A stretch of DNA of 62,682 bases, the filler included, from Kipferlia bialata (taxonomy: Eukaryota): NCBI GenBank assembly GCA_003568945.1. It is 4 parts of 4 records of this genome, joined end to end, with 100 filler letters (N's around TTAATTAATTAA, not from the genome) between each part and the next. Parts side by side here need not be neighbours in the genome. Positions count along the whole stretch, not along the records: positions 1 to 15,611 come from BDIP01000683.1; 3 more parts are not named here. One strand, written 5' to 3'. This document shows, piece after piece, positions 134 through 40,519 of this stretch. How positions within the stretch are numbered: the first letter of the stretch is position 1; each line of letters begins with the position of its first letter. The position numbers and the translations under genes were made by a program. The notes beneath the pieces are model-generated. The model was not told the DNA's origin, searched no databases, and was given only the letters and a program-made list of their open reading frames with translations.

Positions 134-596
134 GTGTGGACTGCACTGTAGGTAGAGAGGCCTCCAGGGAAAGAGCCTTGAGGCCATCAATCCAAGAGGG
201 TACACTTAGTAAGAGGCAATATGGCAAGAAATTGTCAACCCCTCCAACAATTGTTGCACAGATACTTGCAATCACTGATGAACTATATTGTTTGTTTCTG
301 AATATCTATTGTTCCTGGAGTGGGCCATACATATTGCGGCCTCCCACTAGGACACACAACCAGGTGCTATCAAGATATCAGTAGCTGAGTGGGCCTCTTA
401 ACACTGATGAGTAGTTTGTGCCTCTAAGCACCAATGGCTTAGTAATTGATTGCCTCTAATCAATCAATAGCCCTGTAGATAAATACCCCTCCCCCCCCCT
501 CATCCTCTGGACAGGGTCACTGGCTCACTACGACACATATTATCCAAGTGCTCTCAAGACCTTAGTAGCTGAGTGCTCCTCTAATCAATCAATGGC

Positions 597-2715
597 CTAG
601 TAGTTGATTGCCCCCTCCCTCATCCACTGCACAGGGTCACTGGCATAGGCTACATACTTGGAGGCCTGGAGTAAGGATATACATAGAGAGAAATACAGAC
701 TCATATACTTGGAGGCCTGGGGTGAGTAGTATATAATTGAAGTGAGAATCGATATAAATGCTAGAGACTCAAATACTTGGAGACCTGGGGGGAGAATTTA
801 GTTGAAGAAACAGAGAGAAGAATCGGTAGGTACATCGTTAAGACTTGGAGACATAGGGTAAGTCATAACTATAGCATATACGTACCGCCTCTGTCATCTG
901 GGGTGCCTTCTCGTTGAGGCACACCCCTGCATGGGTGGGCAGGATACCCAGCCTGACTAGGTACTTGTGGACAGTCTGAAGAGTAAGCAGTGGTATACTA
1001 CACGATGGGACATATGCGACGGGACTAAACACAACTAAGGCAGTAGTATTCTACGCGATGAGACATAAGATACGCGATAATACCTGCGGCAGGTTCTTGT
1101 GGATGTCTGGGTGCACTGCCGCGTCTGCGGTGTGTCTGGAGCAGTAGTTGAAGATGCGGCCCAGCTGTTGGAGCTCGAGGGAGTTGCACTTGATGCATCT
1201 GAAGTCAGCCATGGTTATACATTGTTTCACACACACATATGAATATATATGGATGATTCATATTGAAGCTCGAGGGAGTTGCACTTGATGCATCTGAAGT
1301 AAGACAAAGAAGAGAGAAGAAACCTAGTGTGTCATGTCAGTTTCTAACACTGATACTGAGTTGCACTTGATGCATCTGAGGTCAGCCATGGTGTATATAC
1401 ATTGTATCATACACATATATATATATATGGATTCTATACTATATATGAATGTAATATATTGTATCATATTGAATCTATAGGGAGTTTCTATCTCTACCTT
1501 TCCCCCCTCTTCGTGTCACACTGTGACGCGGCTAGCCTGTGCAGCCCCCCAGCCAGGTCGTTGACGTCCCAGGGAGGTACATCAGCGTTAAGTGCCAGTG
1601 ACACATCCAACACACAGGAAGCCGCAGTGCGGTAGAGACCGTGTACATAGACCATACCCACGTTGGTGCCTGAAGTTAGTTCGGTTACGCGATTCACTAG
1701 ATATTGCTACACGATGACTCTACCTGGCTGACCAGGGGTGGACAAGAGGTCTGTGTCCATGAGCATGAAGAACCTCTCTCCCTCAAGGACGTGCTGGACG
1801 AACCTAGCGTTGGAGTACTCGGTTAGAGTATACACAATAGAGGAGACTCACCTCCATATCGACAACACTTTCACCAGTGCAGTAGAGTATGTAACTATTC
1901 ACTACTGATAGGCTGAATACCACATATACAGTATATGTATACTCACATCATCTGTAGAGTGTCCCCCACGTTGATCAGTCCCCTCATTAGTATACAAATA
2001 CTATATATATATACATACATATAGTAAGTAATACTACATACACTCACATCATCTGCAGCGTGTCCCCCACATTGATCAGTCCCCTCATGGCAGCCCGTCT
2101 CTGCTGCACAGCCATGCCCAGACACTGCACTAGACGGCCCTGGTATTAATAGGTGTATAGTATATATAGTGAATATATATATATAGTATGTATACAGTAT
2201 ATACTGTCTCTGCTGCACAGCCATGCCCAGACACTGCACTAGGCGGCCCTGGTATTAATAGGTGTATAGTATATATAGTGTATATATATAGATGGTATGT
2301 ATATAGTATATATTGTCTCTGCTGCAGCCATGCCCAGACACTGAACCAGTCTGCCCTAGGGGTGAGACTGGTAGATATATAAGCATGTATATATAGGAAT
2401 TCACATATCTATAGTACAGCAGCCATGCCCAGACACTGCACTAGACGGCCCTGCTGTTAGAAGGTGTATAGTACATAGTATATATACAGTATAACACTCT
2501 CTCTCTATGTATATTGATACTAAATGTAAAGAGTTATGCCCAGACACTGCACCAGTCTGCTCTGGCAATAGAAGGAGTCCTATATACATATAGATACATC
2601 AACATACTCGATATATATAGACTACTAGGTACACGTACACTACCCATGGTCATGGTCTTGACCAGACTAGATATACAAATGTATATACTAGATACATGTA
2701 TATACTAGATATGAG

Positions 2716-2749
<34 letters not shown>

Positions 2750-5700
2750 ACGTACACTGCCCATAGTCATGGTCTTGATCATGTTTGGGTCTGAGCGGCC
2801 CCTCAGCGTGATGTCGCCCCATGGCACCATCTGGTACATGAGACATAGAGAAGTATGTGGTTCATGACACACATATATACACTGACATATATACTTAATA
2901 GAGAGTGATGCCACCCCAGGGAACCTTATGGTGTCAGATGCATAAGAGACAATATCAGGCCGCAAACTGATACTGATATATATATATACACTATAGAGAG
3001 TACCCACCCCATTATTCCCGATATCCGCCTTGGGCTCTATCAGCGGCATCAGGTGGGTGGGAGAGAGAGACACCATGGCCTCAGAGGCAGGGCCAGGGAG
3101 GGTGTAGGCAGCGGTGTCCAGCACCACACGCACAAACCTACGCGATCTGGATATCTGGATCTTGACTGGGGTAGTGTTGACAGGCACTGGGAAGGCTGCT
3201 GCCCCCACCCTCTTCTTGCCAAGCATGACCTGGGGTGAAGAGTATATAATATAAATAATGTATATATTCATGGTACTCATGTCCATATAGTATACTATAC
3301 CATAGTACACTATACCATAGTAGTATACCATCCTATAGTATACCATCCCACTTTGCCAAAAACGACCCGACATCAATAACACTCAGTATTATATATACAC
3401 AGTATGGTATACATAGTTCCCTAGCATAACATAGGTATATGTATGGTCAGTATCAGTATGGCGGTATGGTAACCAATGAGTAGTACATTGATAGTAATTA
3501 GTATCATATCAGTATGAATATGTGTTACCTTAACGCTGTATACATCACAGTAGTCCACCCCGACGATGGTCTTCTCGAACAGAGGCACACCCCTCTTGAT
3601 GTATGCATCCAGGGTACCAGGGAGGGTGTACTTGGGGTCCTTAATAGGAACCACGGTCGGGAGCTGGTTGGTATCCTTTACAAAGCTAAAGGTAAAGAAA
3701 ACTTAAATCACATTCAGAGTATTGAGAGTACTCGGTGTGCGATAATTACCTGTCACTGACACTTGTGGGAATGACCACCTCGAATGTCAGTCTTGTCGAC
3801 CCCTCGTGTCTGCTCCACCTAAGCTCCCTCACCCCTACCCCGACAGACTCATGGGGAGGGGGTACGTAGGGGGTGTAGGGACACACAGAGCAGGCCTCCA
3901 GACGCACGCCCTTGCGGCAGTGAACTGATGGACCTGGGGGTAAGAGGCATGTGTACATACGGGATAGTATAATTACGCGGTAGAGCACCCACCCTTGACT
4001 GGGGACTGGGCACACGCGACCTGTAGCTTGCGGCTGTATGGCGACATGACACTCTTCCTGAGACAGGTGCACAGGCTGGGATGACCACATATATGTATAC
4101 ATTGTACATCTAAGAAATACACTACAATGTATATATATATATATGTATATCTATATATAGTTATGACACTCTTCCTGAGGCAGGTGCACAGGCTGGGTGT
4201 AGGATACTCCAAGGTACTACTATAAAGCAGAAGCGCAGAAATACATATGCACTAGACACGAATCTACAACGTGTATAGAATTCTCGCCCCGTGACATGCT
4301 TCTAAATCTGTACACATACATGTGAGTTTATACATATGCATACCCCCTACCTTGCATCAAATGGCACAGGCCCCACTCCATACAGGGCATAGGACTGGAC
4401 AGAGCCTAGAGTGAATGACTGCAAGATGTATATATTCAGAAGGAGAGAGAGAGACAGGGCATACGACTGGACAGAGCCTATAGTAGGAATTATGTCTGTA
4501 TTATATATATATGTATAGAAGGAGAGAGATATGAAGAGAGGCACTCGATTGCACAGAGCCGACAGTTAGATAGAGAGGGGGAAGGGAGCAAGGTACATTA
4601 GTTGTAGCAGTGCCTACAGTAACATACATGAGATATATAGAGAGAATAGCGACAGAGGAGTGAGAGTGGTCATTGACATGCAGCATTACCTGACTTGACC
4701 ATCCAGCTGGTACTCCTGCCTGTTGTGTCCACTGTTGCAACACCTCCTAGGTGACACCCACCCTTGTCAGCACCCAGGGAGCCTGGGGGTTAGAATATCT
4801 TTGTTATACCCAGTATAGTATACTACCATACTACAAGATATATGTCACCCACCTGATATGGCCGGTGTGCCATAGTTGAACCCGTCCTGGATACTCTTCA
4901 TACCAGGGGCAAGGCCAGTGGTGGACATGAGCTGGAGGGTTAGATATAGACTCTATACTATATACTATACACTATATACTATATATATACTTTGTACTAT
5001 GCAGTGTATACTATATTCCAATATATCTATAGGCAAGGCCGGTGGTGGACATGAGCTGGGGGTGAGTCTAACTGTATTCCATACGTTCATATATACGCAT
5101 GTATATATATGTATTCATATGAGATACAATATACCTGGAACAGCCCCATTGACATGCCCTGCCCCTTCATCAGAGACTCCATGGAGGGCATATATACTAT
5201 ATACACTGTACACTATATTTACTACATACATACATATATATACATGTCTATACCTGAAACAGACCCATGGACATGCCCTCCCCCTTCATCAGGGACTCCA
5301 TAGAGGGGGCATACTTGTTGGAGGACATGTCGACATCGGGGCACAGGACACGCCTATGTATTAGTATAGAACTACACACACAAATATACGGTATAGTATA
5401 CATAAATGTAAATTGATACTGAAATTGACTTGATGCCATGTCCACATCAGGGCAGAGGACGCGTCTGGGGGTCAGGTAGAGTATACTTCTACTGCATACT
5501 ACACACACACACATGAATACCCAAAAAGTATCGAGAGTCAGTAACAATCTACTACTACACATATCACACACCTTGGTATGTACCATTGTGACATGGGATT
5601 ATATGTATAAATATGTATTATATAATATGAAAACTATATATATATATAAATATATATATATATATCTATATAAGTATGTATTTTTGATCCTAATTCCAGG

Positions 5701-7569
5701 TCCCAGAGGGATTCTCTGCGTCGACGTCTCTCCTTCTCCCCTCTCTCTATGTATACCTCATACCTACACTATTCATAGTATACAATGAAGTTTAATACCT
5801 TGGCACCATTGTGACATGGGTCAGTATGTCCCCAGACCTTAGGGCAGTCCCATCTTCGTCTCTCTCTTCTTCTGCCCAGTCCCACCCTCCCTCTCCCTCT
5901 GCATCCCTCTCCTCTCCCTCAGTGTCTAGCACCCTGACACACAGGCATATGTCCTCGCCCCCAGTCACTCTGGGGTCAGCTATGTATACAACGCTGTATC
6001 CTCTATATACTATATGTATATACACAATGCATACCGTGTGTCTACACGGTACTCTGCCATGGTGGCAACTCTCTCTCTCTTCCTCTATAACAGTCAACAT
6101 ACACATGTATATACATCTCCATACCTTGTGTCTATACCGTACTCTGCCATGGTGGCAAAGAGAGAGGGGGCAAGGTACATGCCTGAGATTAGAGAAGAAT
6201 ACAATACATGATAAGGAGAGAGAGAAAGGAGGGGGGGTAAGGTACATGCCTGGTGGATCAGAATATAGGCATTTCCAGGGAATACTATAAATGGGGAGAG
6301 AAAGAGAAAGAGGGCAACATTTATGCCAGGCAATTACTACATGAATATGAACACACACACACACACACACACAGAGAGAGAGACCCGTACCGTCGTGTGT
6401 CCCCACATGGAACAGAGGGACTAGTATATAGATAGATACTAGAGATTTAGTATATTTTCAGTATTACTCATATATACAACTATATATATAGTCTCGTACC
6501 GTCGTGTGTACCCACATGGAACAGGGGGTGCTTGGAGCCTTCAGGGGCCTGGAAGGGTGAGTCACGGTGGTGGACATAGAGGTAGTGGGAAGAGGTATCA
6601 GTATATATAGTAAAACATATATACCATTCCGCACACCGCTGCCATGAACCTGGGCATGGGTGAGACCGGGTGCATCCATATATATAGAACATTACTAGAT
6701 GTACTACTTGGTACTTCATTATATATATATTATATACAATATGCACTATAGTCTATACCTTGCCGCATACAGCTGCCATGAACCTGGGCATGGGCGAGGC
6801 CAGGTGCACTCTGTACAGTGATACCACACTCTGGCCATCGGGGATGTGGACCTGGGGGTGAGTATATAGATGCAGATGTATTCACTGTATATTCATACTA
6901 GATGAGAATACATATGTATATACAGCATTTGAATAGAGCGAGACACCACACTCTGGCCATCGGGGATGTGGACCTGGCGGTTAGGGAATTGCATAATATG
7001 TACAGATACATGTATACAACATGAGTGCAGCTATCAACGGAAACTAATACTCCGCTGTGACCTCTGTATACATGATGACAACACTTCTATATACTTCTAT
7101 GTATATTATTATATGTATACTATTATATTATTATGAAATCGAAGACTCCAAACTACACACATCACATAAATATTTACCTTTGTCTCCCCCCTCAATACCC
7201 TTCCTGTCCCGACCCTATCCTCTCCACACACAGACAAAGTATCACAGTCTAAGCCAACAGGGACTCCCAGGTAGTGGGGGGCTGGGGTTAATTCAATGCA
7301 TTGATTTTGTGTCATCAATCAATCAACTGTGTACCTTCCATTTTCCCAGGGAGCTGGGGGCTGGAGTGCCAATATATCATATACAATCAATCAATTGATA
7401 TATAGAAGTTAATGCGATGATGATATGCCTCTGATGCCATAAAGCAATAGACCCTGTACCTTCCATTGCGTCTGGTGCCTGTGCCTGGTAGAGTCCCCTC
7501 CTGCACCCAATGGCCACAAGGGCACAGAAGGTGGAGAGGCAGGGTAGGCTATGACTAGTGTGTTAGAGG

Positions 7570-7616
<47 letters not shown>

Positions 7617-8308
7617 AATGGCCACAAGGGCACAGAAGGTGGAGAGGCAGGGTAAGCTATGCCTAAAGAGTAAGAGAGAGAGAGAGAGAGATTCTTTGGC
7701 CACAAGGGTACAGAAAGGTGGATAGACAAGGTATGCTGTGCCTAATATATGAGAGGGAGGGAGAAAGAGAGATATGGCTATTCTAAAGAGCACTCACCCC
7801 ACGTTCCCATTGGATGATGCCGGGAGTGTCTTGTAGACACTTATAGTATAGGTGAAAATGTGAATATAGTATACATAGAGTATGTGTATACACTATCCCC
7901 TACCCTACATTGCCACTTGGGGATGCCGGCAGTGTCTTGTGCAGCACCTACACATATACAGAACAAATAGATATACATGATATAGACAGTATATATTACA
8001 TATTATTCACTATGCACCCACCCCACATTGCCATTGGGCGATGCCGGGAGTGTCTTGTGCAAGACACCCATCAAACACCGGTGGACATGGCCGGAGGCAG
8101 CCTCACCCTGCGGTGCTAGGGGTTAGACGACTACTACTATATACACAAGAGAGAGAGAGAGAGATAACAGGTGGACATGGCCGGAGGCAGCCTCACCATC
8201 CTGTGCTGGTATAAGAGTAGAGAGTAGAGAGAGAGAGAGAGATACCAGGTGGACATGACCTGAGGCAGCCTCACCCTGCGGTGCTAGGGGTTAGACGATT
8301 ACTACTAT

Positions 8309-8344
<36 letters not shown>

Positions 8345-8679
8345 TTAGTAGACATGGCCTGAGGCTCACCCGCCTCGGCTAGGGTTAGATATTCACTTAC
8401 CGAGAGAGAGAGGGACAGTATAAGTTGGCACAGGAGGCATATAGAAGAGAGAGAGAGCGAGAGAGACACCCACCTATATCTGTGCAGGGTGGGGGCAGTG
8501 GCACAGGGATAGGTAGGTACTAAAAATACAATGAATATATATATATATATTTATATATATATATATATATACATATAATTATATATACACCCACCGATGT
8601 CGATGCAGGGTGGTGGCAGTGGCACAGGGGTGGGTAGGTACAGTACCATATATACAATGAATATGTATACATACAATAT

Positions 8680-8714
<35 letters not shown>

Positions 8715-11700
8715 ATGCCTATACCTATGTCGATGCAGGGTGGTGGCAGTGGCACAGGGGTGGGTGTGAAGGACAGGTTGGTGTGGCCATACATGGAGGA
8801 GCCTCCGGTGAGGCCCTGGGGTCAGTGTCCAATACACAATGCTATGTTCTCTCTATATGTATAATCAATCCATATAGTCTTCAAATTACACGGATACATG
8901 GAGGAGCCGCCGGTGAGGCCCTGGGGGTTAGACACTCTCTGTCCCTCATTCTCTGAGAACACACGTAACGTAAATACACAATCTATACCTCCGACCTCTG
9001 ATCGACCCTAATGGATACCGACCTAGAATACTACACATATATACATACAGCAACATACTTCATATATGTATATAAGTGTATAAATACAATCTAAACAGTG
9101 TATACCTCCGATCTCTGGTCCATACTTCATATATGTATATTATATACTAACAGTGTATACATACCTCTGATCTCTGGTCCGTCCCTATGGATGCCGACCT
9201 GAGGATGGAGAAGGCCAGCATCTCACTGCCCCTCTGCTCTTCCTCTTCCTCACGGAGTGCCCTAGGATTAGAGTAGGACAGAAAACATGACCCTCACTCC
9301 TGTGAATGTATAAACACCACGCATACTATATATACACATTGTATCATATATGAACTACCTGACTCCAAACACGTGTGGCAGGTCCCTCACTCTCACCCCA
9401 GTGGCTGTATACATGTATATATGTACAATCAATAATATATATATGTATGTTTATATACCTCACTCCAAACACGTGTGGCAGGTCTCTCACCCTAACCCCC
9501 GTGGCTGCCCTGAGGTATCCATCCAGAGACTGGGTGGTCGTCTCGGAGGATATCCTGGAAGTTAGCGAACTGTACATATATATAGTATTTGCTGTATAAT
9601 ACATATATGCAATCATACAACCTTTCCTATATACACACTATATATACCTGTGGAGTGCCACTGCATGCATCACCGACACCCCGGACAATATGTATGTTGG
9701 ACTACACAGTATACCATATATATAATTAGCATATACTATACAATATGTATATATATATTATACCTGTGCAGTGCCACTGCGTGCATCACTGACACCCCGG
9801 GTGTCCTCAGGAAGCCAGGCACAACAACCAGGAGGTTGAGAAGGCCTGGAGCTCAGAATGATACATTTACATATATATGAATACTGAGAGTCAGAAGGAA
9901 TTACTATATGGGAATTATACAGGTTTCCTTTATACATAAATACACATACATATATATGCACACTGTACCTATGTAGTCCGCCATATTTGATGCCGTGATG
10001 TAGTCACACAATACATATATATATGTATGAATATGGAGTATTATGTATGTATGTATACCAGGAGTAGTATACATCACATACATCCTATATGTACACAATA
10101 ATATACACTCAATCATACCTATATAATCTGCCATGTTTGATGCCGTGAGGTAATACACATAGTATATACAATTAGAAGTAATGTCAGTCTCTACTCATGA
10201 ATATGCATGTATACATATATAGATGTGTGTGTGTGTATCTACCTATATATATTCTGTACCTATGTAGTCTGCCATGTTTGATGCCGTGATGTAGTCATAC
10301 ACAAACACCCTGTCCCTCTTGGCAGGGGCACCCTTGGAGGCATGGGGTGAGTATGATAGTATCACTCTCTAGATTCACCGTCTATACTATGAATATAATA
10401 ATAAAAATATATATAAAAAATACCCTTTCCCTCTTGGCAGAGGTGCGCTTGGAGGCATAAGTTGAGGAGTATAATACATGACACTTCAGACATTACACAC
10501 AGGTACAGTTCATACTAGAAACTGTATACATATACATATATACGCCCATATACCTTAGTGACTGGCGTGTCTGCATAGCAGTGCATGTGGGGGCTGAGAC
10601 TGCGCTCTAGGGGGTGAGAGGGAGTAGAGAAACACATAACACAATATATATATGTGTGTGTGATATACACCTCAAGGGTGAGCGGGATAGACACACAAGG
10701 CACACCATAAGTAACATGTGAATGTGGAAGAGGGAGGTAATATCAGACAGCAGCTAACAGACGATACCAAGACAGCAGAGACACACGCACGCATAGTTAT
10801 ACACATAAAGATACAGTACCTAACAACAACTGCAAGCAGTCCCCTGCCAGCAGTGTGATCTCCACCCTTTCAGATGTATACACTACTATATATACATACA
10901 TATATATAATTACCTAGCAACAGCTGCAGACAGTCTCCAGCCAGCAGTGTGATCTCCACCCTTTCAGATGTCAAGATATATGTACTACTCTACCTATCTG
11001 TCTTCATGTATATACATGTGAGTATACCTAGCAAACACTGGAGACAATCCCCAGCCAGCAGTGTGATTTCCACCCTGCCAGAGGTCAAGATATACACACT
11101 ACTCTATCTATCTATATACATATATATGGTGCAGCTACCTAGTAAGAGCTGTAAGCAGTCCCCAGCGAGCAGTGTGATCTCCACCCTTTCAGATGTCATT
11201 GCAGTGCCCAGGCACTTAAGCCAGGACACAAAGATGGACTAGGATTAGAAGCAAGTACATACATATATACAGAGAGAGAGAGAGAGAGAGAGGAAGGTGT
11301 CATGGCAGTGCCCAGACACTTCAACCAGGACACAAAGATGGACTAGTGTTAGACGTATAGATGTATATGACAAGTTAGAGTCCCACCTCAGCACACTCGA
11401 GGTCTACTATGAGGGATCAGCATCAGTATCTAGGTATATATTATATATTACATACCTCACACTCGAGGTCTGATCTCAGTTTGTGGCTGTCAGTCTTGGA
11501 GGGATAGCCTGGGGGGTGAGACATCAAAGATATTCATGTGTCATAATATGCTGTCCCAAGTCCTCACTCTCTATCTTTCTCCACATATATAGTAATTATA
11601 TATAGAGACACAACAGACATACCTAGGATGGGCTGTGTGCCGTAGTGTGCTGTCCAGAGGGGACCAGTCTCTCTATCTCTCTCTCTCTATTAGCTAATAT

Positions 11701-13451
11701 ATATATATATATACGTATACACATACCAAGGATTGGCTGTGTCCCATAGTGCGCTGTCCAGAGGGGACGGCATGTGAGGGGGCTGTCCAGACACTCCCTG
11801 AGGGTGAGGGTATATCATATATACATATATACACTATTAGTATATAAACACAATAAATATATACATATATTATATAGGTTCGCGAGAGGGCTGTCCAGAC
11901 ACTGTCTGTGGTAGGTGCTACTAGATACATTTAATAGACAGATCAGAAAGTATGTTCTTACATACCATATACCCCAAACTAACTAATTGTACCTATAGTC
12001 CCCTAATCTGTACATGGCTGGCCACTGCATATACATGTATATATATATGTACACACTAATCTTATACTAATTATTCACAATACCCTACCTATAATCCCCC
12101 ACTCTATACATGGTTGGGTTGGCCACGGCATGATCCACTTACACAACACACACACACACATATATATACACATATATATCATATAGTACACATACAATGA
12201 CATACCTATAGTCCCCCACCCTGTACATGGTTGGGTTGGCCACGGCATACTCATCGGGGGCACCGGTGTAGGAGCCGTCAACCACATAGTCAAGCTGCCT
12301 AAGGTTAAGAGTATTACACATATATATATATATACATATATAGAGAGAGAGAGGTAGATGTAAATGTACTGATACCATCAACCACATAGTCAAGCTGTCT
12401 AAGGGTGAACATAGTAGGTATTATATACAGTGTATATATTATATACAGTGTTTGGAATTAGGTCAGATTGGAATGATGCACACAGACGACCTGTCAAAGG
12501 GAGAGTATAGCTGACATACGATATCGCATATTGGAAGCATAGATACTGTGACAACACATCGCATAGTCAAACTGTCTGAGGAGTGAGAGAGAGAGAGAGA
12601 GAGAGAGATAGTCAAACTGTCTGAGGAGTGAGACTGTGATACACACCAATGGTAAAAGAGTGGTAAAAGAGTGGTAAATAGTGATTAAACATACTTCTCC
12701 AATGTCTTCCCGTCCATGCATATCCCCAGTCCCCTCTGGATCAGAGCCTTGGCACACACCCTCAGCTCCTTGCCAAGGGCCGGCATGGACTGGGGTGAGG
12801 TATACAACATAGCAGCTATATATAGTACATGGACTAGAGAGAGAGAGAGATCAGCATACCTTGATGGAGGGTCTGCCGGAGTGGTTGGTCTGGGTCCCGG
12901 TCGAGGCCTAGGGTGACAATGGATATGTGTGTATAATATATACAATATAATATATGTATAGTATAGAGTAATGTGAGACATGTATGCACCATGACGATGG
13001 GAGCAGCAATTGTACCTCATATACATGAGAGATACTACTAGACCAATACTGATACACCTGGTACCGCGCCAAGATACATGTATATATATATATATATACT
13101 TATACATATTCATATATAACTATAGACATTTACCTGGTACCGCGCCAAGTGGACGTCTGTTCTAGAACGGGCACAGCACTGGGAGTTAGAGAAGAGATTC
13201 ACACATTCACCCTAAGAAATACATATATATATGATACCCCCATTACCTTGTTATAGTTGTGTGGCCCTGTCTCTGCCCACAACTGTAGCACAGGCAGTAG
13301 ACAGCATCTCTCTCTCTCTCTCTCCCATAATACATATACAAATATCCATATACCCTACCTTATTGAAGTTCACCGGTCCTGTCTCTGCCCACAGCTGTAG
13401 CACAGGCAGTAACTGCTGGGCGGTGGCCATGCCCATCCTGAAGAGTAAGTG

Positions 13452-13486
<35 letters not shown>

Positions 13487-13495
13487 CAATGAATG

Positions 13496-13543
<48 letters not shown>

Positions 13544-14079
13544 ACTGTTGGGCGGTGGCCATGCCCATCCTTATTGTCAATAAGGAAGAAAGAGTGATAG
13601 CTTGATATATGAACAAATAGAGAGAGAGCGCTCATTTCCGTAAGAGTACATATATTCATCTCGTATGGGGAGTGGCCATGCCCATTCAGGGGGTTAGAGA
13701 AGGAAAGAAACATCGGATACTCATATATAGTACAGTCCAGTATGCACATGCTGTACCTAACAGCAGGTACAGATGGTAGCTCCACCGGTGAGTACTGGGT
13801 GTGTGGCACAGGGGGGGTGTCGGGCAGGACACGGGCATTATCAGGGCCATAGGTCAGAGACTCGATCTGAGGGGTTAGATGTGAATGATACGATTCATAT
13901 ATATATAGAGAGAGAGAGAGAGGGAGAGAGAGAGAGAGTCTATAAGGACACGGGCGCCATTAGAGAAAGTCAGGGACTCAATCTAGAAGTTAGATAGAAA
14001 TACCTATTCATACATAGAGAGAGAGAACTAGAGTATAATAGAGGCGTACCTCCTCCACCAGCTTCCGGCAGGTGTTCCC

Positions 14080-14117
<38 letters not shown>

Positions 14118-15324
14118 ATATATATGTACTTATATATATATAGATACATATTTATATATAACACTTCATATATATCTACAACCTCCTCCACCAGCTTCCG
14201 ACACGTGTTACTCAGACACTCTCTCACTATCAAACTATATCTTGTATATGGTATATATACTACACTAGAGTAGTACCTCCTCCACCAGCTTCCTGCACGT
14301 GTTCCTCAGCCTCACTAGATCCTTGGGAGAGAGGTATGCATCATACATCACACGCCACAGGTAGGAGGCAAGGGTATTGAGGGTTTCTCCTGAAGTTATA
14401 CATTGGCTATATATCTGTATATGAACACTCTACCATTCAAGGTGTAATATGTATGCGTCATCACACGCCACAGGTAGGAGGCTAGGGTGTTCAGTGTCTC
14501 TCCTACTGTTAGAGTAGTGATACTAATCTAATGTCACATACATGTTCATACTATAGATATATGTATTGTATATAGCAATACATGACACGCCACAGGTAGG
14601 AGGGAAGGGTGTTGAAGGTCTCGCCTGTCATAAGCTCATATCGTATTAGTGAATATATGAATATATAAGTGTATTGTTGTGTACTCACCCTTGACCCTCC
14701 TCTTGATGCTCTCCCCTTTGGGGTTGGACCAACTCTCTATATATATACATATGTATACATGTAGACGTGTCTAAACTATTTCTAGTACTCATTGAATCAC
14801 ACTCACCCTTGACCCTCCTCTTGATGCCTCTCTCCAATCTACAATATAACATAACTATGTACATGTCATTTGCATAGAGGTACGATACTATAATATCTCA
14901 CCCTTGACCCTCCTCTTGATGCCCTCTGCATTGGGGTTGGACCGGGTGGGGCGGATCTGGGGTTATATACACATACGAATGAACTCACAAATACACTTGT
15001 ATTAATAAATGTACCAATTAACAGTTGGTGGGGCGCACTAGGTTAATATCAGTGTTGACGAGTAGCTTCTAATACGTGTTAGTGTGAACAGCCGCCACAT
15101 GGATACAGAGACCAGGACAAATGTATCCATATATACAGTGGATACCTTCTTGTTCCATGCCCTGACTGTGTGTGCCACAATCATGATGCACTTCTGATAT
15201 GCCTATGCATATATGATATGCATATACATGAATACATGAATACATACATATATATACATATATCTGATACCTTCTTGTTCCATGCCCTGACTGTGTGTGC
15301 CACAATCAGAGTGCGGCACAGGAC
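597..15324 (-). CDS. large multi-exon (>30 exons) DUF4470-like protein of the family that carries a MYND finger in fungi; 5'-truncated
   Basis: Exons chain in frame from VLCRTLIVAH (15324) to GAINY* (stop 597-599). Motifs recalled from that family: VEITLLAGDCL, YDYITASNMADYIGLLNLL (cf. FDVIDTSNLxDHLGxLNLL), FPVPVNTTPVKIQISRSRRFVRV, VYVHGLYRTAASCVLDVSL, HKYLVRLGILPTHA. Confidence 0.7.
10820..11085 (-). repeat. three intronic 3'-half echoes of exon 11139-11238, each ending in a GT donor
   Basis: Copies start at 10820, 10914 and 11028; two encode exactly TSERVEITLLAGDCLQLLL and one has two amino-acid changes; they are separated by unrelated TA-rich spacers. Confidence 0.95.
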
Positions 15325-15611: not shown

Positions 15612-15711
15612 NNNNNNNNNNNNNNNNNNNNNNNNNNNNNNNNNNNNNNNNNNNNTTAATTAATTAANNNNNNNNNNNNNNNNNNNNNNNNNNNNNNNNN
15701 NNNNNNNNNNN
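15612..15711. other. artificial scaffold-joining spacer (N-run, TTAATTAATTAA, N-run)
   Basis: The same 100-nt block recurs at 31320 and 47014; it has stops in all six frames; flanking segment lengths descend (15611, 15608, 15594, 15569). Confidence 0.97.
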
Positions 15712-15764
15712 TTTATAAAAATAATGGAACCCCCCCCCCCCCCCCCCCCATTCCCTCATCCCAG

Positions 15765-18465
15765 ACTCCCGCACCTCGGGTCTGTCTGAGGCCAAGGCCA
15801 CCATTCATGACCTCAAGAAGAGTCTGAAGTACAGGGAGAAGGACATCGAGAGGCTCACAGCATCACTCAATGGAGTGTACAGGTTAGGGTCCTGTCTAGT
15901 TGTACTATTACATTCCATGTCATTGATACATCATCACTGTCTAACCCCCAGTGACCTGTCTACCACCCGTGCCGAGTTGCAGTGGTGGAGGGAGGAGGTG
16001 GGGCCCCAGGGCAACTACACCCCCCCTGCCTCTCTGGTGCCCATACCTGTGGAGACACTCAAGAGAGAGAGAGAGAGGAGCACAGAGGGAGATGAGTCAT
16101 CCCTCCTGGATATGCATGCTCTGGATGAAACACTCAGTGGCGCCCCCCTCTCCCCCACCTCTTCTGTCTCCAGACACCACTCGAGACACACCTCCAGACA
16201 CGGGTCCAGACCGCACTCCAGACACAGGAGCACTAGGGAGAGAGGAAAGGTGGAGGCAATGCTGGAGAGGGAGAAGGAGAGAGCGGATACGGCGGAGAGA
16301 GAGCTGGCCGAGCTGAAGGAGTCTCTGGCAGAGTTCACAGCCTTGGAGGAGGAGAGAGAGAGGGAGAGAGAGAGGGCTGCTGCCAGGGAGGCCGAGGCGT
16401 CTGCCCTGAGGGAGAGAAAGGCAGCCATGGAGAGACAGAGGGCGCAGGAGGCAGGCATATACGCCATGCACCCCACCAAGGTGGGTATCACTTGTGCATA
16501 GTATGTATATATATATATATTCCATTATTGGTAGAATCTCTCTCTCTGTGCCCCTCCCACCCCCAGCCCGAGCCCGTCCCCCTCGACTCCTCCTCCTCCT
16601 CTGTCGAGCAGGCTGGGTCCCAGGCACTCACTGCCTTTGCGGCACTCAAGCTGGACCTGGCAGGGATACCAGGCATCAGATCAGCTGGGTCGGGAGGTGA
16701 GTGAAGTAGAGTGTTGACTAGGTGTCTTTGTTGTCATATTCCCTCTATAGTTACAATGACATCTGTTGCGTCTCACCCCCCAGCTGCCGGTGCCATGGAC
16801 AGTCAGAGGGCTCTGGAGAAGGAGAGAGAGAGGGACGTGCCTGCCCTGCACCACAAGAGGACGGAGAAGGTATATTGTGTATGCGTGTCTGTGTATATGT
16901 ATTAGGAATTGCTCTACGGACTCTCCATATATCATCCACTTAGTCTAACCCCCCAGCCTGGTCTGTACATGAAGGAGAGAGAGTCCTCCTATGTGGTGCC
17001 AGGGACCCCCGAGGGACAGAAGACAGAGAGGTGAGAAGGGTACAACTACGAGTCCTTGTCCATGCACACATGTCTATAATAATTGTTAGTCTGTCTCTCA
17101 CCCTCAGGCCCGATATTGGAGACAGTCTAGCCGCTGCCTCCCGCCTGGCTGGTATGTCCTCCCTGACTGTGGATGATACTGTGGATGGGGACACGGGTAT
17201 GGAGCCATCCACAGAGAGCGAGAGGGTGTACAACATTGCATCATTGGGCAGCAGTCACGCACACTCCATGCTGGGACAGACACAGGTGAGGGGGTATGGG
17301 TGCTAGTGAGGTGTATTATTGCGTATCCAACCCCAGACTGGTGCCTTGTCGCTAGGCCTGCCCGCACACCGTGGGGTGGAGAGGGAGAGAGACCCTGTCC
17401 CTGAGGTTGCAGACCCCCTAGCAGGGTCAGTGGCCCTGAGGAGAGAGGTGGACAGACTGGAGGCCAAGAACAGGTGGGTGGGCAGTCATATAGACACAGA
17501 ACAGTATGTCATAGTAGTCATACGTACAAATCCGATCGATGTTGCTCTCCTACTTCCTCCCCCTGACCCCCAGGCTGTCTGAGGACAGGGTCACCAGGAC
17601 AGAGCATGCACTGGCGGAGATGCAGGTGGGTAGCATTGTAGTTAGTGTGTATGTATATACCCTAGTGTGTGTTTACCCCCAGACTGTGTTGGAGCAACTG
17701 GCCAAGGAGCTGCAGACGCAGAGAGAGAGGGAGAAGGAGAGGGAGAGAGAGGCCCAGGCAGCTAAGAGAGCAGAGAGAGCAGAGAGGGAGAGGGAGAGGG
17801 AGAGCGATACCTCACCAACCACACTCAATGTCGTCGATATTAGGTATATACATTTGTATATATATGACATTCTGTGCTCTCCTCTTTCGCAAAGCTTCTA
17901 GGTAAGCATACCCGGTATCCCACCCCTCTGACCCCAGGATGTCCAACTCCAGTATGAGGCGCAGCATAGGCCGCAGCAGGGACGCATGCAGGGATGCCGA
18001 TACCGACTACCCCCCTGCCCCCAGGGGTCAGCGAGACATGGAGACCACCCCGTCCAGACCCCCTAGGTCCAGGCACAGACACACAGAGCCCAGGGTGCCC
18101 ACCCTCGATGTGGGTACCTCCCCCCATGCAGCTGTTGTGCCACACTCTGCGCTGGAGGAGGCACTGGCTGCTGCTGCGGCCATACAGGTAGGGGGTGGCA
18201 TGTGGGGTATCGCGCAGGGTGTTGTGGGAGACCGGTTGGTGTGCTACACGTATCTCGTAATGGGTATTCGCTTCTCCATTTCCTCTTACCTTAGGATGGT
18301 GCCGAGGAGAGAGACGGCACATACAGAGGCCAGATTGAGGATAGGTGGGTGTTGTGATTGGGTCTATATTATCACATAAGCAAGTAAGTGACCCACCCTG
18401 ACCCCAGGCGTCTTGAGTTGAGTGTTGCCAGTAGCACTATAGAGGCACTCATACCACAGCTCCAG
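15765..18465 (+). CDS. hypothetical coiled-coil / low-complexity protein (internal part, ~12 exons)
   Basis: In-frame exon chain with short GT-AG introns (e.g. exons 15765-15880, 15953-16480, 17683-17842, 17938-18187, 18408-18465); E/R/A-rich heptads; ends at a poly-C break. Confidence 0.7.
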
Positions 18466-18497
18466 GTAATGCAACTTACATACGAATGCATACAGTG

Positions 18498-20236: not shown

Positions 20237-21048
20237 ATGGGCCAGTTCTATGTACGGCACAACATAGACAACTCCACCGACCAGGCAAGAGTTTTGATAT
20301 ATAGGCATCAGTGTCATGTGTCTGTATGTCAATGACTAACCCACCAGGTGATCCAGGCGCATGACAGGGTCACTGGCCAGGTCTGTATCCTAGACAAGGC
20401 CACCCACCTGGCACAGCCCCGGTCGGCCAAGTCATGCTTGGTCAACGAAGGTATAGCGATCCGGTCCCATCCCCCCCACCCCCACTCACCCAAGATGTGT
20501 GGCTTGTCTGCTACGAGGAGGAGCAGGTGGAGCACATGCACGACGAATACCCATTCGGGTTCCCAAGGAGTCGAGTCTTCAGTGCCAGGCACCTAGGGGT
20601 GGAGCTGAGCATCAGAGCCACCTTGCTCTACCCCCACCCGTCACTAGGTTGGGCAGTCTGTATATATACGTATCGGTGTGTGTGTGTAGATATCCATACT
20701 GACCCCAGACTGGGCAGAGGACGGAAACCCAGGGCAGAGTATATCTATATATATGTATATATAGCAGAGTGTGTATATATATAAGGCAGAGAATATAGTA
20801 TATATACACGTGTGTGTGTCTATACACTGACCCCAGACTGGGCAGAGTGTATATGTCTATTCTGATACTGGGTATATATCTATATATACATATATTCCTA
20901 TGTAACCTTATGCATATCTTCTCTGACCCCAGACTGGGCAGAGGATGGGGATCCAGGGGAGGAGAGACAGAGGCTGAGCGAGTTCGAGGAGGAGAGCATC
21001 TGGCTCTGGAACGAAAAGAGGATCCCAAAGAAGAGGATAAGGCACTAG
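20237..21048 (+). CDS. small hypothetical protein, 4 exons
   Basis: ATG 20237; exons MGQFY / VIQAHD... / DVWLVCY... / DWAEDG...KRIRH* join in frame through GT-AG introns; two acceptor echoes of the last exon near 20700 and 20830. Confidence 0.55.
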
Positions 21049-21495: not shown

Positions 21496-24400
21496 CTAGG
21501 CATCAGAAGGGTTGTCGACACATGCACCCGGCACAACAGACCAAGACTCCTGACCGGTCTCGCTATCCATTCCACTACTTGCAGCAGGTGTCACTTGGAT
21601 ATAACAAGAGTCGTCGGCTCTGCCATAGGGTGCAGACTCAGAGTGGGTAGCAGGGGGAGACTCAGCTGCGGGAGAAGAGGTTGGCCCATCAAAGGACTCC
21701 CCGTCTGAGCATTCTATAGAGACAACCGGCGTCTCACTGACACTGGAGTGGTGAGTAGTGCCGACTGCGACACGCTTTCCGTCTCCTCTTACCAAAGACT
21801 TCAAGGTACGCCCTATGTCCAGTCGAGTGTGTTCAGTCACCACACGCTCCTCTTGGGTGACGTCAAACACCTGCGATTAGATACATGTAGTAAGTCAGGT
21901 ATGCATAGTACTTCACAGTATCCATCAACATGATGCAACGACAGTAATCACGCCGTGTACCTGAAGAACTATGAACAGACACACTGCGTAGTCGATCACT
22001 CTGCCGTATGGCTGGATGTCTGAGTATTCGAATATGTCCTCAGCCTCCGATTGACCAAACATGACCATGACTACAATGCAACCAAACGATAGCAGATTGG
22101 TGAACCAGTTGAATGCAGGGGTACGAACGGCAGCAAATCGAAGGGGTGGGCTGCAATGAGATGGCAATTATTGGTGTGCTGACGGGATAGGTTGAAATGG
22201 AAGGAAGTAGTGGTGAATGATACTCCACCTGCACAGCATGTCTGCAAGGACCACAAGGATGGGGCCGACAATCGGAACAACAAGCAAAGCAGAGCTTTTT
22301 AGTGTCAGGTGGAGCTCTATGAGCCTTTCGGACTCACTAGAGTCTCTTGTTGATACATCGAGACAGTCGTCTGAGACCCGTTCGTTGAGTGAGGATATTC
22401 TGGCCGCAGTCATGGCATACGGATCGAAGTCATTCTTGGGGGAGAGGATCAATGAGATGATGAGACTCGAAATGAGACTAAACATCACCCAGGCAGCCGC
22501 TTCTGGGGCAGCACTTCCGGCACTTGATAAGTACAGGGATGTGAGGACACAGACTGTGGCGTGTCTTCGACGCCCGTGCTTCAAGGAGACAGTGTTGTGG
22601 ACTCCTGTAGCTGCCTGGAGAACAAAGAGCAACGAAGCTGCAACAGGCGTGTATAGTACATATGTGAAGAACAACGGGGAGAGTACCACGAAGACAGTGG
22701 CCCGAATCGTGGAAGAGACCACTTTGAGAATGGCGTTACCAGAGTATGTGCTCTGAATCAGTCTCTTGCGCAAGGAAAGAGCGTCACAAAGAGACCAAAT
22801 TGAATCCCACGCCTCGGTAACAAAACAACGAAGTGTCTTGGACTCCTCACCCATGAATGCAAGGAGAACAAAGGCAATAGCAACCATGCCGGAATAGACA
22901 CATATCGCAGCCTCTTTTCTCCAGCCACTACTACCAGCGGCTATGTACCAAAGAGTGGTGTCAGCCATGATGGAAGCCACAATATCTGAGCTGAAGTTGA
23001 GCGTGAAGAAGATGGCATAGGTAAGAACCCTCTTCCGCACAGTCATAGACGTCTGCCGCATAAGGAGCTGCCAATTCATGAAGGAAGCACACACCAACAT
23101 GATCATAACTGCTGCGGAGAGGGTAACAAACAGCATTGGACTCAGATTCTCGCTGACTAGGTACTGAATTGCTGCAGTCGAGATGTTGTCAAGGAACATT
23201 GTCAGTCTAAATGCGTACTTCACCACCGGATAGCGTGTCAAGAGTGCTCCTGATATCCAAACCGGTGTGAATAGACCAACAGTTCTGACGTTGGAGAGAT
23301 GGATGATCGATACATGAACTGAAATATGCCATAGCAGTGATGATCTCTTTGTGACTGAGAGAGAGAGGGCTCCATATAGGGGGAGAATACATATACATAC
23401 CTCAGTACTACAAAAAAGGATCCCGAGAGCATGAACAACTTGAGTGCTGAGAATATTGCAACGTCAAGAGCTACAAAGGCAACGTGAACACCTCGGTCCA
23501 AAAGAGTACGAGTGCTGGTATCATGACCGACAGTAGGATCATCTTCCGGAATGGTGTATATCTCAGTGGGGTATGGCAACTCTGGGTGGATATCATGGCC
23601 TGTGCTGGATGGCTGCTCCCTTTCACCAATGAGTTCAGGTGAGTGAGACTTGATAAGGCCAGAGATGGCACACACCGCCATGGTAGCACCCACTAGGAAC
23701 ACCAGTATGACAGCTCCCCACGACCCTGTTGATATCGGAATGTGAAGGATAGGGGTACCTTCAAACGTGACAACGATACTAGAGAATGCTAGGCTTCCGA
23801 CCCCGAACGAGTCATAGGGGAGGCAGTACTTGAGTGTGGCATAGCTATCGTCAACGCTGAACATAAAGACAGGCTCTGAGGTCGAGCCGTCATACTCCAA
23901 CACCCCAACACCCGCGGTTCCACAGGATATCGGCTCCATGTTGGCATCGTAGAGGGAAATGTCCACAGTCCCACATCCATTCATGGAACCTGTGAAGTCA
24001 CCTTGGACGACAGCCCCCACAACGGGAATAGCAGGAAGGTCAGACCCCGGAACCCAGGCAACAAAGGACTCGCTGATGTTCTTGACAGTACCGTCGAGGT
24101 AGTCAGTGCCGAAATCCCACACGAGTGTGGGTATTGGCAATATGGATCCCTGTGCACCTCGCTGCCAGTCGGGTGGCAGCGCAAGAGGGTGTTCGAACGT
24201 CGCCCGTAAACCATCCTCCTCGGACCATACAGTGGTGCAAGTGGAGACATCCCCGTCGCCAAAGCGGACATTGACGTCCTGTGGCTCCAAATGACTCTCC
24301 CCCAAGTACACACCAATGATATTTCTGGTCTCTCCTGTGTTGGTAATGATCAAATACAAGTCCTCACTTCGGGGGTCTACACATACAATTGTAGTAGCTA

Positions 24401-26201
24401 TATCCATGGAGGATATGACTGCCACGTGATCAGACACGTATCTAGTGCCAAAGATGGTCACTGTCACAAGCTCTCCAGGAACGAAGAAGTCAACATATCC
24501 CATGTAACTGAAGACTACTTCCTGGTCATAGTGTGAGACATATCCCGTAATGTTGGCAGGGGTTCCCCCATCAGAGTGATACCCAAGGGAAACGGCCGAA
24601 GCGTCTTGGACATATGACCCCAGCCCTATAGACACTCTTAGAGAGGGACTTGATGTACCAGAAGAGCTAGGAGAGAACCTGACTTCGACCGGATCAATGT
24701 CTTCTCCCCAACGAGAGTCGATAAACGCAAGGAATGGTATACTCCCAGTGTCATCGGTCCCACTAGGCATGGCCAGTATCAGGAGAGTGTCAGACCAGAG
24801 GGAGACAGAGGACCCGAATCCGTCCAACAGCATTCCCGTCCCTGCCCAGATCTCCTCCCACTCCAAAGGTACACTGTTAGAGCGGCGCTGATACACTTTA
24901 ACAGAACCAAAGGGTGCATCAACGGTTGAGCCTGGACTCCCAACAACCAGTGTGGTGTGTCTTACAGAGAGTGAGGATCCAAAACACACAAACCCGTGTA
25001 TAGATGGACCGGTTTGCCAAGATCCATTATCGAACGAGAATGTGTGTACTGTACTTGTCTGCGCATCATTTTCTTGGGTCTCTGCCACAGCAAGAACATC
25101 ATCGTGAATTGCAACACGGCTACCGAAGGTTGCCCCTCCAGAGAGTCTGAGTGTCTCGTCCCAGGTGGACATTGTCTCTGTACTTGTTGCTTGGTACACA
25201 ACCACAAAACCCGTAGACCCAGTGGTACCACCAAGAACAATCTGGGAGCCGTCAGTAGCCACACTATAGGTATCGGAAGACCCAGGGTATGGCAAGGATA
25301 CAGCTAGCCAAGCACCTGAGCCAGACTCTAAGAGAAAGCCAGCCACTTGTGACCCATCCTCATCAGAGTAATGCGCGATGAGGAGACCACTCCGAAGATC
25401 CAATGCTTGCACCTCACATGTATCACCTGAGTCCCCAAGCGGCAGGACCTGGGCCACCTCCCACTGGTCTGATTCACTGTGGTGGGCAAATACTTGTACT
25501 GAAGCAGTGTCACACACTGCAATACAGCTGCCGTCGATAGCCACACAGCTTCCAAATCCCGCAGTCCCCGTCCCCAGTCTCTCAGTCTGAGTCCACTCTA
25601 GGTTGATACGTCTGTAGATGTAGGCAAATCCAAGAGTGGGGTCCCCCACGACAGCGCACTCCTCTCCAACAGCAACCATGCCTCTTGCATCATTGGATGG
25701 GTCGGTGACGGACACAGGATCTGTCGGAATGTCCAGTTCTGTGACTCTAGAGAACAGAGGATATGTCCTTACCGGGAACTCCCACTCATGCACTCCGTTG
25801 ATCTCGACTGTGAAGGTGAGGGCATCCCACACAACAACCTCTGCAGTGAAGAGCCCCGTCACAGAGTCCAATACCGCCGTGTATCGAGCACTGTCCACTA
25901 CCGCCAAAACCTCCAGAGTAGATAGGACAGCCTCTGGCAGGGTGGTCTCTCCATTGACTGAGATATCCACAGGGTAAGGTAGTCCTCGTGGGAACGAATA
26001 CTCACTCACACTCACAGTGACGCCCAAGTCATCGATACTCATGTCACTCGGTGCGAGCGGGACTTGCAGGGAGGATATCGCCCCATTGGGGGACGGCATG
26101 GGTGCACAATCCACACCTGTTTCACACTCTGGATGACAGGGTAGTATGCCAGGCAGAGGAGGCAGAGGCAGGCTACTAACATCGTGCACATCACTAAAGA
26201 C
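21496..26201 (-). CDS. large surface protein: FG-GAP-like beta-propeller ectodomain plus multi-pass transmembrane C-terminus; 5' end uncertain
   Basis: 2.8-kb exon with FGSCVAIDG, FGSRVAIHDD, FGSSLSV..LVVGSP and FGSSVSLW repeats; the four ORFs join in frame using plausible introns 23285-23400, 22151-22228 and 21871-21960. Confidence 0.7.
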
Positions 26202-27299: not shown

Positions 27300-27765
27300 T
27301 GACCCCAGGGCACCTCTATCGTGGACTCATGCATATTCAATTAGGGCACTTATGAAATGGAGTATATGTATATGTATCCTTCTGAATGTAATAGTGTCTG
27401 ACCCCAGGGCATCTCCATCGTTCACCCAATAAGAACACATATGTATAAGAGTATGTACAATTACTCCTGAATATGTATATATATGGTGTATGATGCATCT
27501 GACCCCAGGGCACCTCCATCGTTGACACACATGCTTATTCATTTAGTACACATATGATATGGAGTATATGTGATATGGAGTATATGTATATGTACATCAG
27601 CCTATATGTCTGACCCCAGGGCACCTCCATCGTTGACTCCACCCCAGGCACCACAGCAGACACAAAGGTATGGGTATATGTGTATGGTCAGTTATATACA
27701 AAAATATATATATAGAGAGAGAGAGAGAGTATGAATGTACCCCCGGCACCACGGCAGACACTAAG
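27300..27765 (+). repeat. echo array around the HydF G2 exon: three acceptor echoes and one donor echo
   Basis: TCTGACCCCAG|GGCA.. ends at 27308, 27407, 27508 and (full exon) 27619; 3' echo 27739-27765 is followed by GTATGG. Confidence 0.95.
27609..27619 (+). promoter_or_regulatory. representative fused branch point / 3' splice site CT(A/C/G)ACCCC(C)AG
   Basis: Precedes most exons throughout the window on both strands; no separate polypyrimidine tract between branch motif and AG. Confidence 0.85.
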
Positions 27766-28995
27766 GTATGGGTATATATTTGTAATAAGAATAGAGAGAG
27801 AGAGAGATTTCCAATCACAGGTTGCCCTGATGGAGATGCACGGGATGGGCCCAGTCAAGCTGTTCGACACAGCAGGTATGTATATCTATATTGAATATGC
27901 ATTGATGGTTCTGGTATATACAATTGTATCTATAAATATGTATATATGATATATTGCACGGCCCTGTCAAGCTGTTCGACACAGCAGGTATGCCCATGCC
28001 TTAACGATGATATCCATACACATACATATCTATCTGTATGTGTATTCACTCATCTAACCTCATGCCTGACAAGGAGAATAGTGTCTATTATTATTATATA
28101 CTATATAATATACTGTATAATATACTATTATATTTACATTCATTATTATATGTACACTTCACGTACACTACAGTTCTATTATTTCCAAATACTGTTTCTC
28201 ACCCCATGCCTTGACGAGGAGGGTATCCTTGGGAACAAGAAGCATGCCAAGACATACCAGGTATTACAGTGTGTTTAGATATTCACACAGATTCATCGTG
28301 TTATACTGTATGTACATAATATAGTATATATATGATATATTATTAGCAAGAAGCATGCCAAGACATACCAGGTGCCATTTACAAAATTATATTTGACTAC
28401 ATGTGTATACAATAAATGTAACATTCATAGTGATATAGTTGGTACAGGTATATATATGTATTCCACTGGTCACTCACCCGTAGTCCCTTGCCCAGAGTGA
28501 CGTGGCCCTCCTATTATACTAATACCATTTACTAGTGTATATACCATTGAATAGTATATATCAAATTGTTTCTAATCCTCAGTCCCTTGCCCAGAGTGAC
28601 GTGGCCCTCCTGCTAATCTAACATTTATATATACATATGAATATATGTATTATATATGTATTACTATATATAGATACCTCATCTAATCCTCAGTCCCTTG
28701 CCCAGAGTGATGTGGCCCTGCTTCTAGTGGACCCTGCATCAACACCCCCAAGGCAGGGGGACAAGTGTGTGGAGGTATGTATATGTATATATATACAAAT
28801 ATGTATGTATACATATATATATATACCTTGTGGACCCAGCATCCACACCACCCAGACAGGGGGACAAGTGTGTGGAGGTATGTATATATATATGTATATA
28901 TATACAAATATGTATGTATACATATATATATACCTTGTGAACCCAGCATCCACACCCCCAAGGCAGGGGGACAAGTGTGTGGAGGTAAGAATATG

Positions 28996-29031
<36 letters not shown>

Positions 29032-31319: not shown

Positions 31320-31419
31320 NNNNNNNNNNNNNNNNNNNNNNNNNNNNNNNNNNNNNNNNNNNNTTAATTAATTAANNNNNNNNNNNNNNNNNNNNNNNNN
31401 NNNNNNNNNNNNNNNNNNN
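31320..31419. other. artificial scaffold-joining spacer
   Basis: N-run + TTAATTAATTAA + N-run, 100 nt. Confidence 0.97.
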
Positions 31420-40317: not shown

Positions 40318-40519
40318 ATGGGTTATCTTTTATGTATTGTGTGAATGGCTGTTGCCTGTTTTCCCTCATATTGTGTCACACCATCGCACCGGAACGTGTG
40401 AATAGAACACAGAGTGGTGTACTGAACTGTTTTTGCTTCAGGGTCAGAATTGATTGGTTGTTCGGTTTGAAATGAACGTCCAATCAGCTGCAGCATCTTC
40501 TCTTTCAGGACAATCACAT

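Follow-up and report, generated by a model that had tools for sequence, protein, structure and literature searches.

Truncated exon copies in Kipferlia bialata introns keep their splice signals and differ from their exons mostly at silent sites

Many exons in a 62,682-nt stretch of Kipferlia bialata DNA (assembly GCA_003568945.1; hereafter the window) are flanked by truncated copies of themselves that lie inside the adjoining introns. These copies, here called echoes, are genuine: each is a tandem copy of a single exon edge, comprising about 33 nt of exon and about 75 nt of intron, and is removed by splicing. They were under selection for both coding and splicing until recently. With a probability of roughly 0.56, they derive through recombination from further working alleles of their gene and have become non-working only recently; this mechanism of origin is inferred from the one haplotype examined. 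Most echoes were found in a single gene, referred to below as the focal gene:
597-15324, minus strand: focal gene KIPB_003532 (hypothetical protein), 40 modelled exons with an open frame, 54 echoes.

The window consists of four contigs, each about 15.6 kb long, with N44-TTAATTAATTAA-N44 spacers between them (15612-15711, 31320-31419 and 47014-47113), and genes on either side of a spacer are not neighbours. The focal gene occupies the first contig (1-15611), where its exons run from 15324 to 597, and it likely continues beyond the contig end. Six genes with 128 exons were modelled by script and by hand. The initial gene predictor picked several echoes as exons, and manual curation replaced its model. 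The codon analysis excludes the genes at about 15712-18470, 22168-26201, 40500-45900 and 59600-62600.

Each exon was compared, without gaps, with its two flanking introns, and matches with a score of at least 15 were kept. There were 117 matches at a score of at least 12 and 100 at the higher threshold; one of the 17 weaker, dropped matches (29102-29118) has the wrong polarity. The 100 echoes adjoin 52 of the 128 modelled exons in five of the six genes, namely the focal gene (54), CFAP44 (23), hydF (18), NFRKB (4) and a kelch-like gene (1). As a control for chance, exons were paired with non-adjacent long introns, and none of 248 such pairs scored 15 or more. The central claim of the original prediction, that introns here hold truncated exon copies with splice sites, is borne out by these counts. 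So is the polarity that it described: all 100 echoes conform to it, 45 being 5' halves upstream of the exon and 55 being 3' halves downstream. The polarity is no clue to mechanism, because any tandem duplication across an exon edge would produce it once harmful forms had been removed.

Echoes are 16-60 nt long (median 32.5) and are spaced at a median of 107 nt, with 96 of 100 intervals falling between 67 and 150 nt. They form 71 arrays, of which 47, 20, 3 and 1 contain one, two, three and four copies, respectively. An echo is present in 54 of the 73 introns longer than 140 nt and in none of the 49 shorter ones, and each echo lengthens an existing intron by about 107 nt (r 0.88). The cut ends show no clear codon phase and no common donor or acceptor. 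The echoes contain no in-frame stops, and in 80 of 91 cases use of the echo splice site would shift the frame or run into a stop. For the last exon, copies of the 3' half extend across the stop codon into the DNA beyond it, where no donor exists; echoing is therefore a process at the DNA level that does not depend on a donor site.

The distribution of echoes is gene- or region-specific. The gene at 31490-34844 (minus strand, 12 exons) has no echoes despite nine introns longer than 140 nt, and its microsatellite fraction is 0.012. In a self-comparison of the window, no close repeat pair is listed for 15712-18470 or for 40500-47000. Repeats (microsatellites) make up 0.117 of echo introns and 0.027 of long echo-free introns. 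For the earlier proposal that echoes are initiated at intronic microsatellites, this is only an association.

The differences between echo and exon are strongly biased towards silent changes. Of 226 differences in the 100 echoes, 168 are silent and 58 are replacements, and mismatches at codon positions 1, 2 and 3 number 38, 23 and 165. Divergence is 0.245 per silent site (dS) and 0.024 per replacement site (dN), which gives a dN/dS of 0.098 with a confidence interval (CI) of 0.067-0.137 (bootstrap over 71 arrays). The silent to replacement ratio is 113:36 with the nearest echoes alone and 153:58 with unique sites, and the bias has a P of 1e-13 against a null matched for trinucleotide context. 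The mismatches thus fall mainly at third codon positions, as had been predicted, and the individual examples also hold: five silent changes at 14502-14459, three at 27739-27765 and two at 9969-10007, with one replacement just outside the last, in the alignment extended to 10010. Direct comparison of echoes with each other gives 64 silent and 27 replacement changes (dN/dS 0.14).

Random mismatch, the null on which the original prediction relied, is not a fair expectation, since the working exon also gains silent changes after a duplication. The correct null is a dN/dS of about 0.5, and it too is rejected. In simulations, duplication followed by neutral decay gave a dN/dS of 0.45-0.49 and echo-exon conversion inside the locus gave 0.56-0.66. 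Capture of alleles from lineages about 0.2 apart, followed by a short decay, gave 0.09-0.14. Changes private to the inner echo, in places where the outer echo equals the exon, comprise 27 silent and 12 replacement changes (P 4e-6). Such changes should be neutral if echoes were snapshots of the exon, which argues against the snapshot reading. Silent changes are GC-symmetric (68 vs 60), are spread evenly across echoes (dispersion 1.16, P 0.13) and do not rise with distance from the exon. Nineteen echoes in 100 match their exon exactly, where 13 would be expected. Replacements show no significant tendency to be milder than random changes (BLOSUM -0.36 vs -0.64, P 0.27).

The splice signals have changed without losing their consensus. 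The echo extends to the splice site in 92 of 100 cases; GT is kept in 47 of 49 donors and the acceptor dinucleotide in 41 of 43 acceptors. Changes affect about 4 of the 184 letters in splice dinucleotides, a fraction close to dN. Echo acceptors differ from the acceptor of their own exon at 4.0 of the last 12 positions and score 11.2 vs 12.7 bits, whereas acceptors with an equal number of random changes score -1.4 bits (best of 500 runs 1.4). Echo donors differ at 1.5 of 6 positions and score 5.2 vs 6.2 bits, random changes giving 0.6. Of 43 pairs, 15 have an echo acceptor that is stronger than the one in use and 21 have a weaker one. Since the consensus is kept despite the changes and dinucleotides are lost at about the rate of dN, codons and splice signals appear to have diverged while they were working, with about 0.02 changes per site of decay since. 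The low dN/dS, the consensus-keeping splice changes and the simulations together support the idea, put forward in the original prediction, that every echo belonged to a functional exon until recently.

The intron side of the unit behaves differently. Most flanks are as unlike as unrelated introns, even next to identical exon parts, and echo divergence does not correlate with flank similarity (rho 0.0). The statement that the filler differs between copies is therefore mostly right, and fails for the 14 of 92 flanks that lie above the 95th percentile of unrelated flanks, a few of them being near-identical. One such case is the hydF array at 28694-28984, where two fillers are near-identical and the inner echo differs from the exon at six silent and no replacement sites. 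Three of the six changes are common to both echoes and three are private to the inner one. The combination indicates a recent duplication of the unit with exon sequence from another source.

Logan contigs of a DNA run (X1) and of a second, putative RNA run (X2) were compared with the window over 7700-13440 only. Among the 8 X1 pieces listed out of 762 records, contigs match 8739-10875 (2137 nt) and seven other segments with 0 differences and 0 gaps, at a depth of 362-466. X1 is possibly the source sample and would then be a second assembly, not a second organism. Apparent joints in X1 resembled cross-matches between microsatellites and were disregarded. The X2 contig covers eight listed full exons with 0 differences. 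Its span over 8022-12789 is 1007 nt, the exact sum of focal exons 8-19, which indicates that the echoes in the introns between these exons are spliced out. No echo variant was seen in the eight listed putative-RNA pieces.

The source of the echoes must be another copy of the gene, and a search for a paralogous donor found none (one protein per search; one-member clusters). Alleles are therefore the likely donors, and many of them are needed because arrays hold four or five different versions. The species would have to be very diverse, now or formerly; its alleles would differ by about 0.2 at silent sites, and their introns would hardly align. A break in a TA/GA-rich intron would be repaired on the diverged homologue; copying would cross the splice site into the exon and be abandoned there, and rejoining of the end would leave a foreign piece beside the resident exon. 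Later unequal exchange and conversion between echo and exon, both confined to the exon-like part, may add, refresh or remove copies. Selection would remove copies that carry both splice sites or are cut inside the exon only, which would fix the polarity and cap the length of the unit near that of one intron, while a demoted echo would decay, by about 0.02 changes per site so far. The echoes are probably a by-product of repair rather than an adaptation.

The repair machinery reported for related organisms is compatible with such events. According to the available text of PMC8516963, fornicates lack non-homologous end joining (NHEJ) and Rad51A and retain two Dmc1 paralogues, and alternative end joining is full in some metamonads and partial in others. 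Mismatched joints are stabilised by Dmc1, as described in the accessible part of PMC6719624. In Caenorhabditis elegans, abandoned homologous repair followed by end joining yields tandem duplications from about 100 bp (PMC8654963, in the sections available). K. bialata is diploid according to k-mers, as given in the available portion of PMC5874029.

Several observations weigh against capture from alleles. The private changes of the outermost echoes are 24 silent to 18 replacement, and this richness in replacements implies that some echoes are older and decaying. Replacements are in excess near the cut end (P 0.002; the ratio goes from 0.065 to 0.34 away from the splice site), an excess that is not significant after a 6-nt trim (P 0.18). 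A free branch-point letter is identical in 16 of 37 pairs, 29% being expected if the introns were unrelated, and fourfold sites are identical in 490 of 606, so that divergence on the intron side is several times higher. Such an intron excess is not expected under a plain allele model and calls for rapid mutation in introns, constraint on silent sites or long-standing population structure. Most fillers at the junctions could not be aligned to any origin. Outcrossing in K. bialata is not shown in the literature found; no second allele was seen in X1 over 7700-13440, in contigs that drop variants; and two metagenome scans, with proteins P0001 and P0002, gave no relative. A more far-reaching version of the allele explanation, which we put forward tentatively and think rather doubtful, would make the introns a genome-wide archive of exon halves from other alleles, written by Dmc1-driven recombination, swapped back into exons and policed by selection. 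One genome would then record the diversity of a population, and intron ends would be continually renewed.

The nearest competitor, less probable again, is a swap-ready store of old resident echoes that re-enter the exon by pop-out or conversion, where selection in a very large population purges the damaged ones and the filler drifts. It accounts well for near-saturated intron sides beside an exon part that is 0.24 apart and sometimes identical, for replacements that increase away from the splice site and for echo splice sites almost as strong as the real ones. In-locus exchange without selection on the echo, however, simulates to a dN/dS of 0.56-0.66, the replacement gradient loses its significance once trimmed, and the eight listed putative-RNA pieces contain no echo variant. 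Indirect selection at a dS of 0.24 would require a hyperdiverse population, whereby this explanation merges with allele capture; from one haplotype the two are inseparable. Donors could instead have been sub-genomes inherited from an ancient hybrid or polyploid, since collapsed to one copy, with the echoes as leftovers. The even silent divergence would suit one divergence time, the unalignable introns would suit old lineages and no second haplotype is visible. This origin is nonetheless improbable, as several donors are required wherever the three or four copies of an array all differ from one another, and the protein collection contains no paralogues. Slightly less credit is due to ordinary duplication of the resident exon, in which copies keep older versions and then decay or homogenise in the locus, the silent bias being a side effect. 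The same architecture occurs with concerted evolution in amphioxus (PMC3087553, as far as its available text goes), the number of identical echoes exceeds expectation and the near-identical flanks imply that within-locus duplication occurs. This scheme predicts a dN/dS of at least 0.45, far above the observed CI, and it is also opposed by the 27:12 ratio of inner-private changes and by splice signals altered without weakening.

Two further explanations are very improbable. Direct selection on echoes translated from minority transcripts, which would use an echo half by unusual splicing, would lead one to expect the low dN/dS, the lack of stops and the strong splice sites; the putative RNA contig uses full exons with 0 differences, the cut ends share no donor or acceptor, use of the echo site is disruptive in most cases and echoes are also found past the stop codon. 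An artefact of assembly or library, with haplotypes pasted in tandem, is suggested by X1 being possibly the source sample, represented by contigs only, by a look for long reads that found none and by one array that adjoins a 100-N gap (56926-57025). It conflicts with the Logan contigs, which reproduce 8739-10875 and the seven other listed pieces exactly and at high depth, and with arrays of up to five different versions, above the diploid supply. Intron insertion with target-site duplication was rejected because the copy would have to start at the exon edge every time, and reverse splicing of foreign introns because it would yield no silent differences in the exon part. Alternatively spliced exon copies were rejected as well: each echo has one splice site, and none appears in the eight listed putative-RNA pieces.

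The structure itself is not new, contrary to what had been supposed. Copies termed 'mirages' have been reported in amphioxus, in Adh3, the globins BflGb6 and BflGb9, troponin C and PGBD5 (PMC3087553 and PMC3902484, in their available text). As described there, mirages resemble echoes in being head-to-tail copies that span an exon-intron boundary, as 92 of 100 echoes do by reaching the splice site, and in copying either 5' or 3' edges. They often keep AG/GT and leave splicing undisturbed, and the echo dinucleotides and the putative RNA contig with full exons agree with this; their units of 10-160 bp include the echo spacing of 107 nt. Mirages are minisatellites at single loci in which the whole unit is alike (81-100%) and evolves in concert; an unstable copy number between alleles or cells is a further feature of the class. 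Echoes, in contrast, fail in whole-unit likeness (14 of 92 flanks above control; 47 of 71 arrays single-copy), and described mirages do not match their presence at 52 of 128 exons in 1-4 copies, their dN/dS of 0.1 or their consensus-keeping splice changes. The Kipferlia arrays are thus a variant of mirages, with a known architecture and a signature of selection that the known explanation does not account for. The word 'synonymous' is absent from the accessible text of PMC3087553, and 'duplicat' and 'heterozyg' are absent from that of PMC5874029. In a search that mostly did not extend to subscription journals, no report was found of such copies in Kipferlia or other protists, of so high a density, or of selection signatures in mirages.

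Two other systems invite comparison, on the strength of the available parts of their descriptions. C. elegans helq-1 and brc-1, through abandoned synthesis-dependent strand annealing and polymerase-theta end joining, likewise produce head-to-tail copies from about 100 bp (PMC8654963). It differs from the echoes in that the sister is usually the template, so that the copies are identical, in a median size of about 1 kb and in junction microhomology, which is shown for it and not for the echoes. In the Rogers model of intron gain, cited in PMC3087553, splice sites are duplicated, as splice signals are duplicated beside the exon in echoes, and such duplicates provide raw material from which introns can form. 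Unlike in that model, no echo was seen recruited as an exon, and the copies lengthen existing introns.

If capture from alleles is correct, one genome would provide thousands of 'fossil alleles' (54 of 122 introns here, extrapolated to the 124,912 introns given in the available text of PMC5874029). Diversity and genetic exchange would be measurable from a single isolate of a free-living Giardia relative, and the loss of Rad51A and NHEJ in fornicates would be tied to a mark visible in the genome. How mirages arise, described as unclear in the accessible text of PMC3087553, becomes testable at scale. Splicing poses a question of its own, since echo acceptors are skipped though sometimes stronger than the used one; small nuclear RNAs were not found in K. 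bialata according to the available part of PMC6679479. Echoes can also mislead gene predictors.

The arrays examined individually are the following:
14050-14624, minus strand: exon 14389-14277 with 5' echoes 14622-14578 and 14502-14459 and 3' echoes 14215-14183 and 14089-14050.
11993-12398, minus strand: exon 12298-12206, used in the putative RNA contig, with one 5' echo and two 3' echoes.
10820-11342, minus strand: exon 11238-11139, used in the putative RNA contig, with one 5' echo and three 3' echoes.
9969-10456, minus strand: exon 10341-10260, with an acceptor ending in AT, one 5' echo and two 3' echoes.
7798-8378, minus strand: exon 8115-8022 with three 5' echoes and two 3' echoes.
1947-2555, minus strand: exon 2139-2048 with four 5' echoes and one 3' echo.
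345-716, minus strand: last exon 665-597 with short 5' echoes and with 3' echoes that continue beyond the stop codon.
28694-28984, plus strand: hydF exon 28694-28774 with two 3' echoes.
38900-39512, plus strand: NFRKB-like KIPB_003538, with exon 39147-39247 preceded by three 5' echoes and exon 39299-39428 followed by one 3' echo.
20709-21048, plus strand: kelch-like gene, one scored 5' echo of exon 20933-21048.

Each 3' echo of exon 11238-11139 has its own silent variants. The array at 9969-10456 lies inside the 2137-nt DNA contig piece with 0 differences. In the 5' echoes of exon 8115-8022, an exon-like flank lies outside a foreign flank. A very diverged 5' echo of exon 2830-2756 at 2895-2960 (minus strand), under the score cut-off, was read by eye; by this reading it encodes nearly the same peptide as the exon, with mostly silent changes. 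The CFAP44 echo at 56871-57080 adjoins the 100-N gap, and this array alone could be a scaffolding overlap. Two introns are apparently GT...AT: the acceptors at 10341 (minus strand) and 28208 (plus strand) end in AT after a normal branch motif. The AT acceptor at 10341 agrees with the length of the putative RNA contig, and the echo at 10456 likewise ends in AT.

Two of the remaining echo-bearing genes account for most of the other echoes:
27309-31221, plus strand: hydF-like gene fragment, 10 exons, 18 echoes (33 silent, 5 replacement changes).
47166-59490, minus strand: CFAP44-like gene (KIPB_003546), 56 modelled exons, 23 echoes (25 silent, 11 replacement changes).

The hydF label is weak (Pfam HydF_dimer, E 0.12, from one 24-amino-acid exon), the CFAP44 label comes from a PDB match (E 5e-11) and the NFRKB label from the UniRef name of protein P0003. 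The gene with exon 20933-21048 is presumed to be kelch-like from its motifs only. A protein search with a focal-gene exon returned one protein, KIPB_003532 of K. bialata itself. The focal protein, P0001, has no usable identity in Pfam, PDB or Atlas, the best match being F-box-like (E 0.045). Its record contains extra residues read from introns at 10341-10368 and near 8725 (minus strand), for which the putative RNA contig has no room. The record also skips a possible small extra exon with an upstream acceptor at 1817-1881 (minus strand), its junction lying near 2048-1803. Elsewhere in the window, a direct repeat that is perfect over about 40 nt stands at a contig end (46920-47000) and is possibly an assembly end effect. 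The region 22168-26201 (minus strand) contains two long uninterrupted frames of 431 and 987 amino acids whose ends overlap, and the neighbouring genes are intron-rich.

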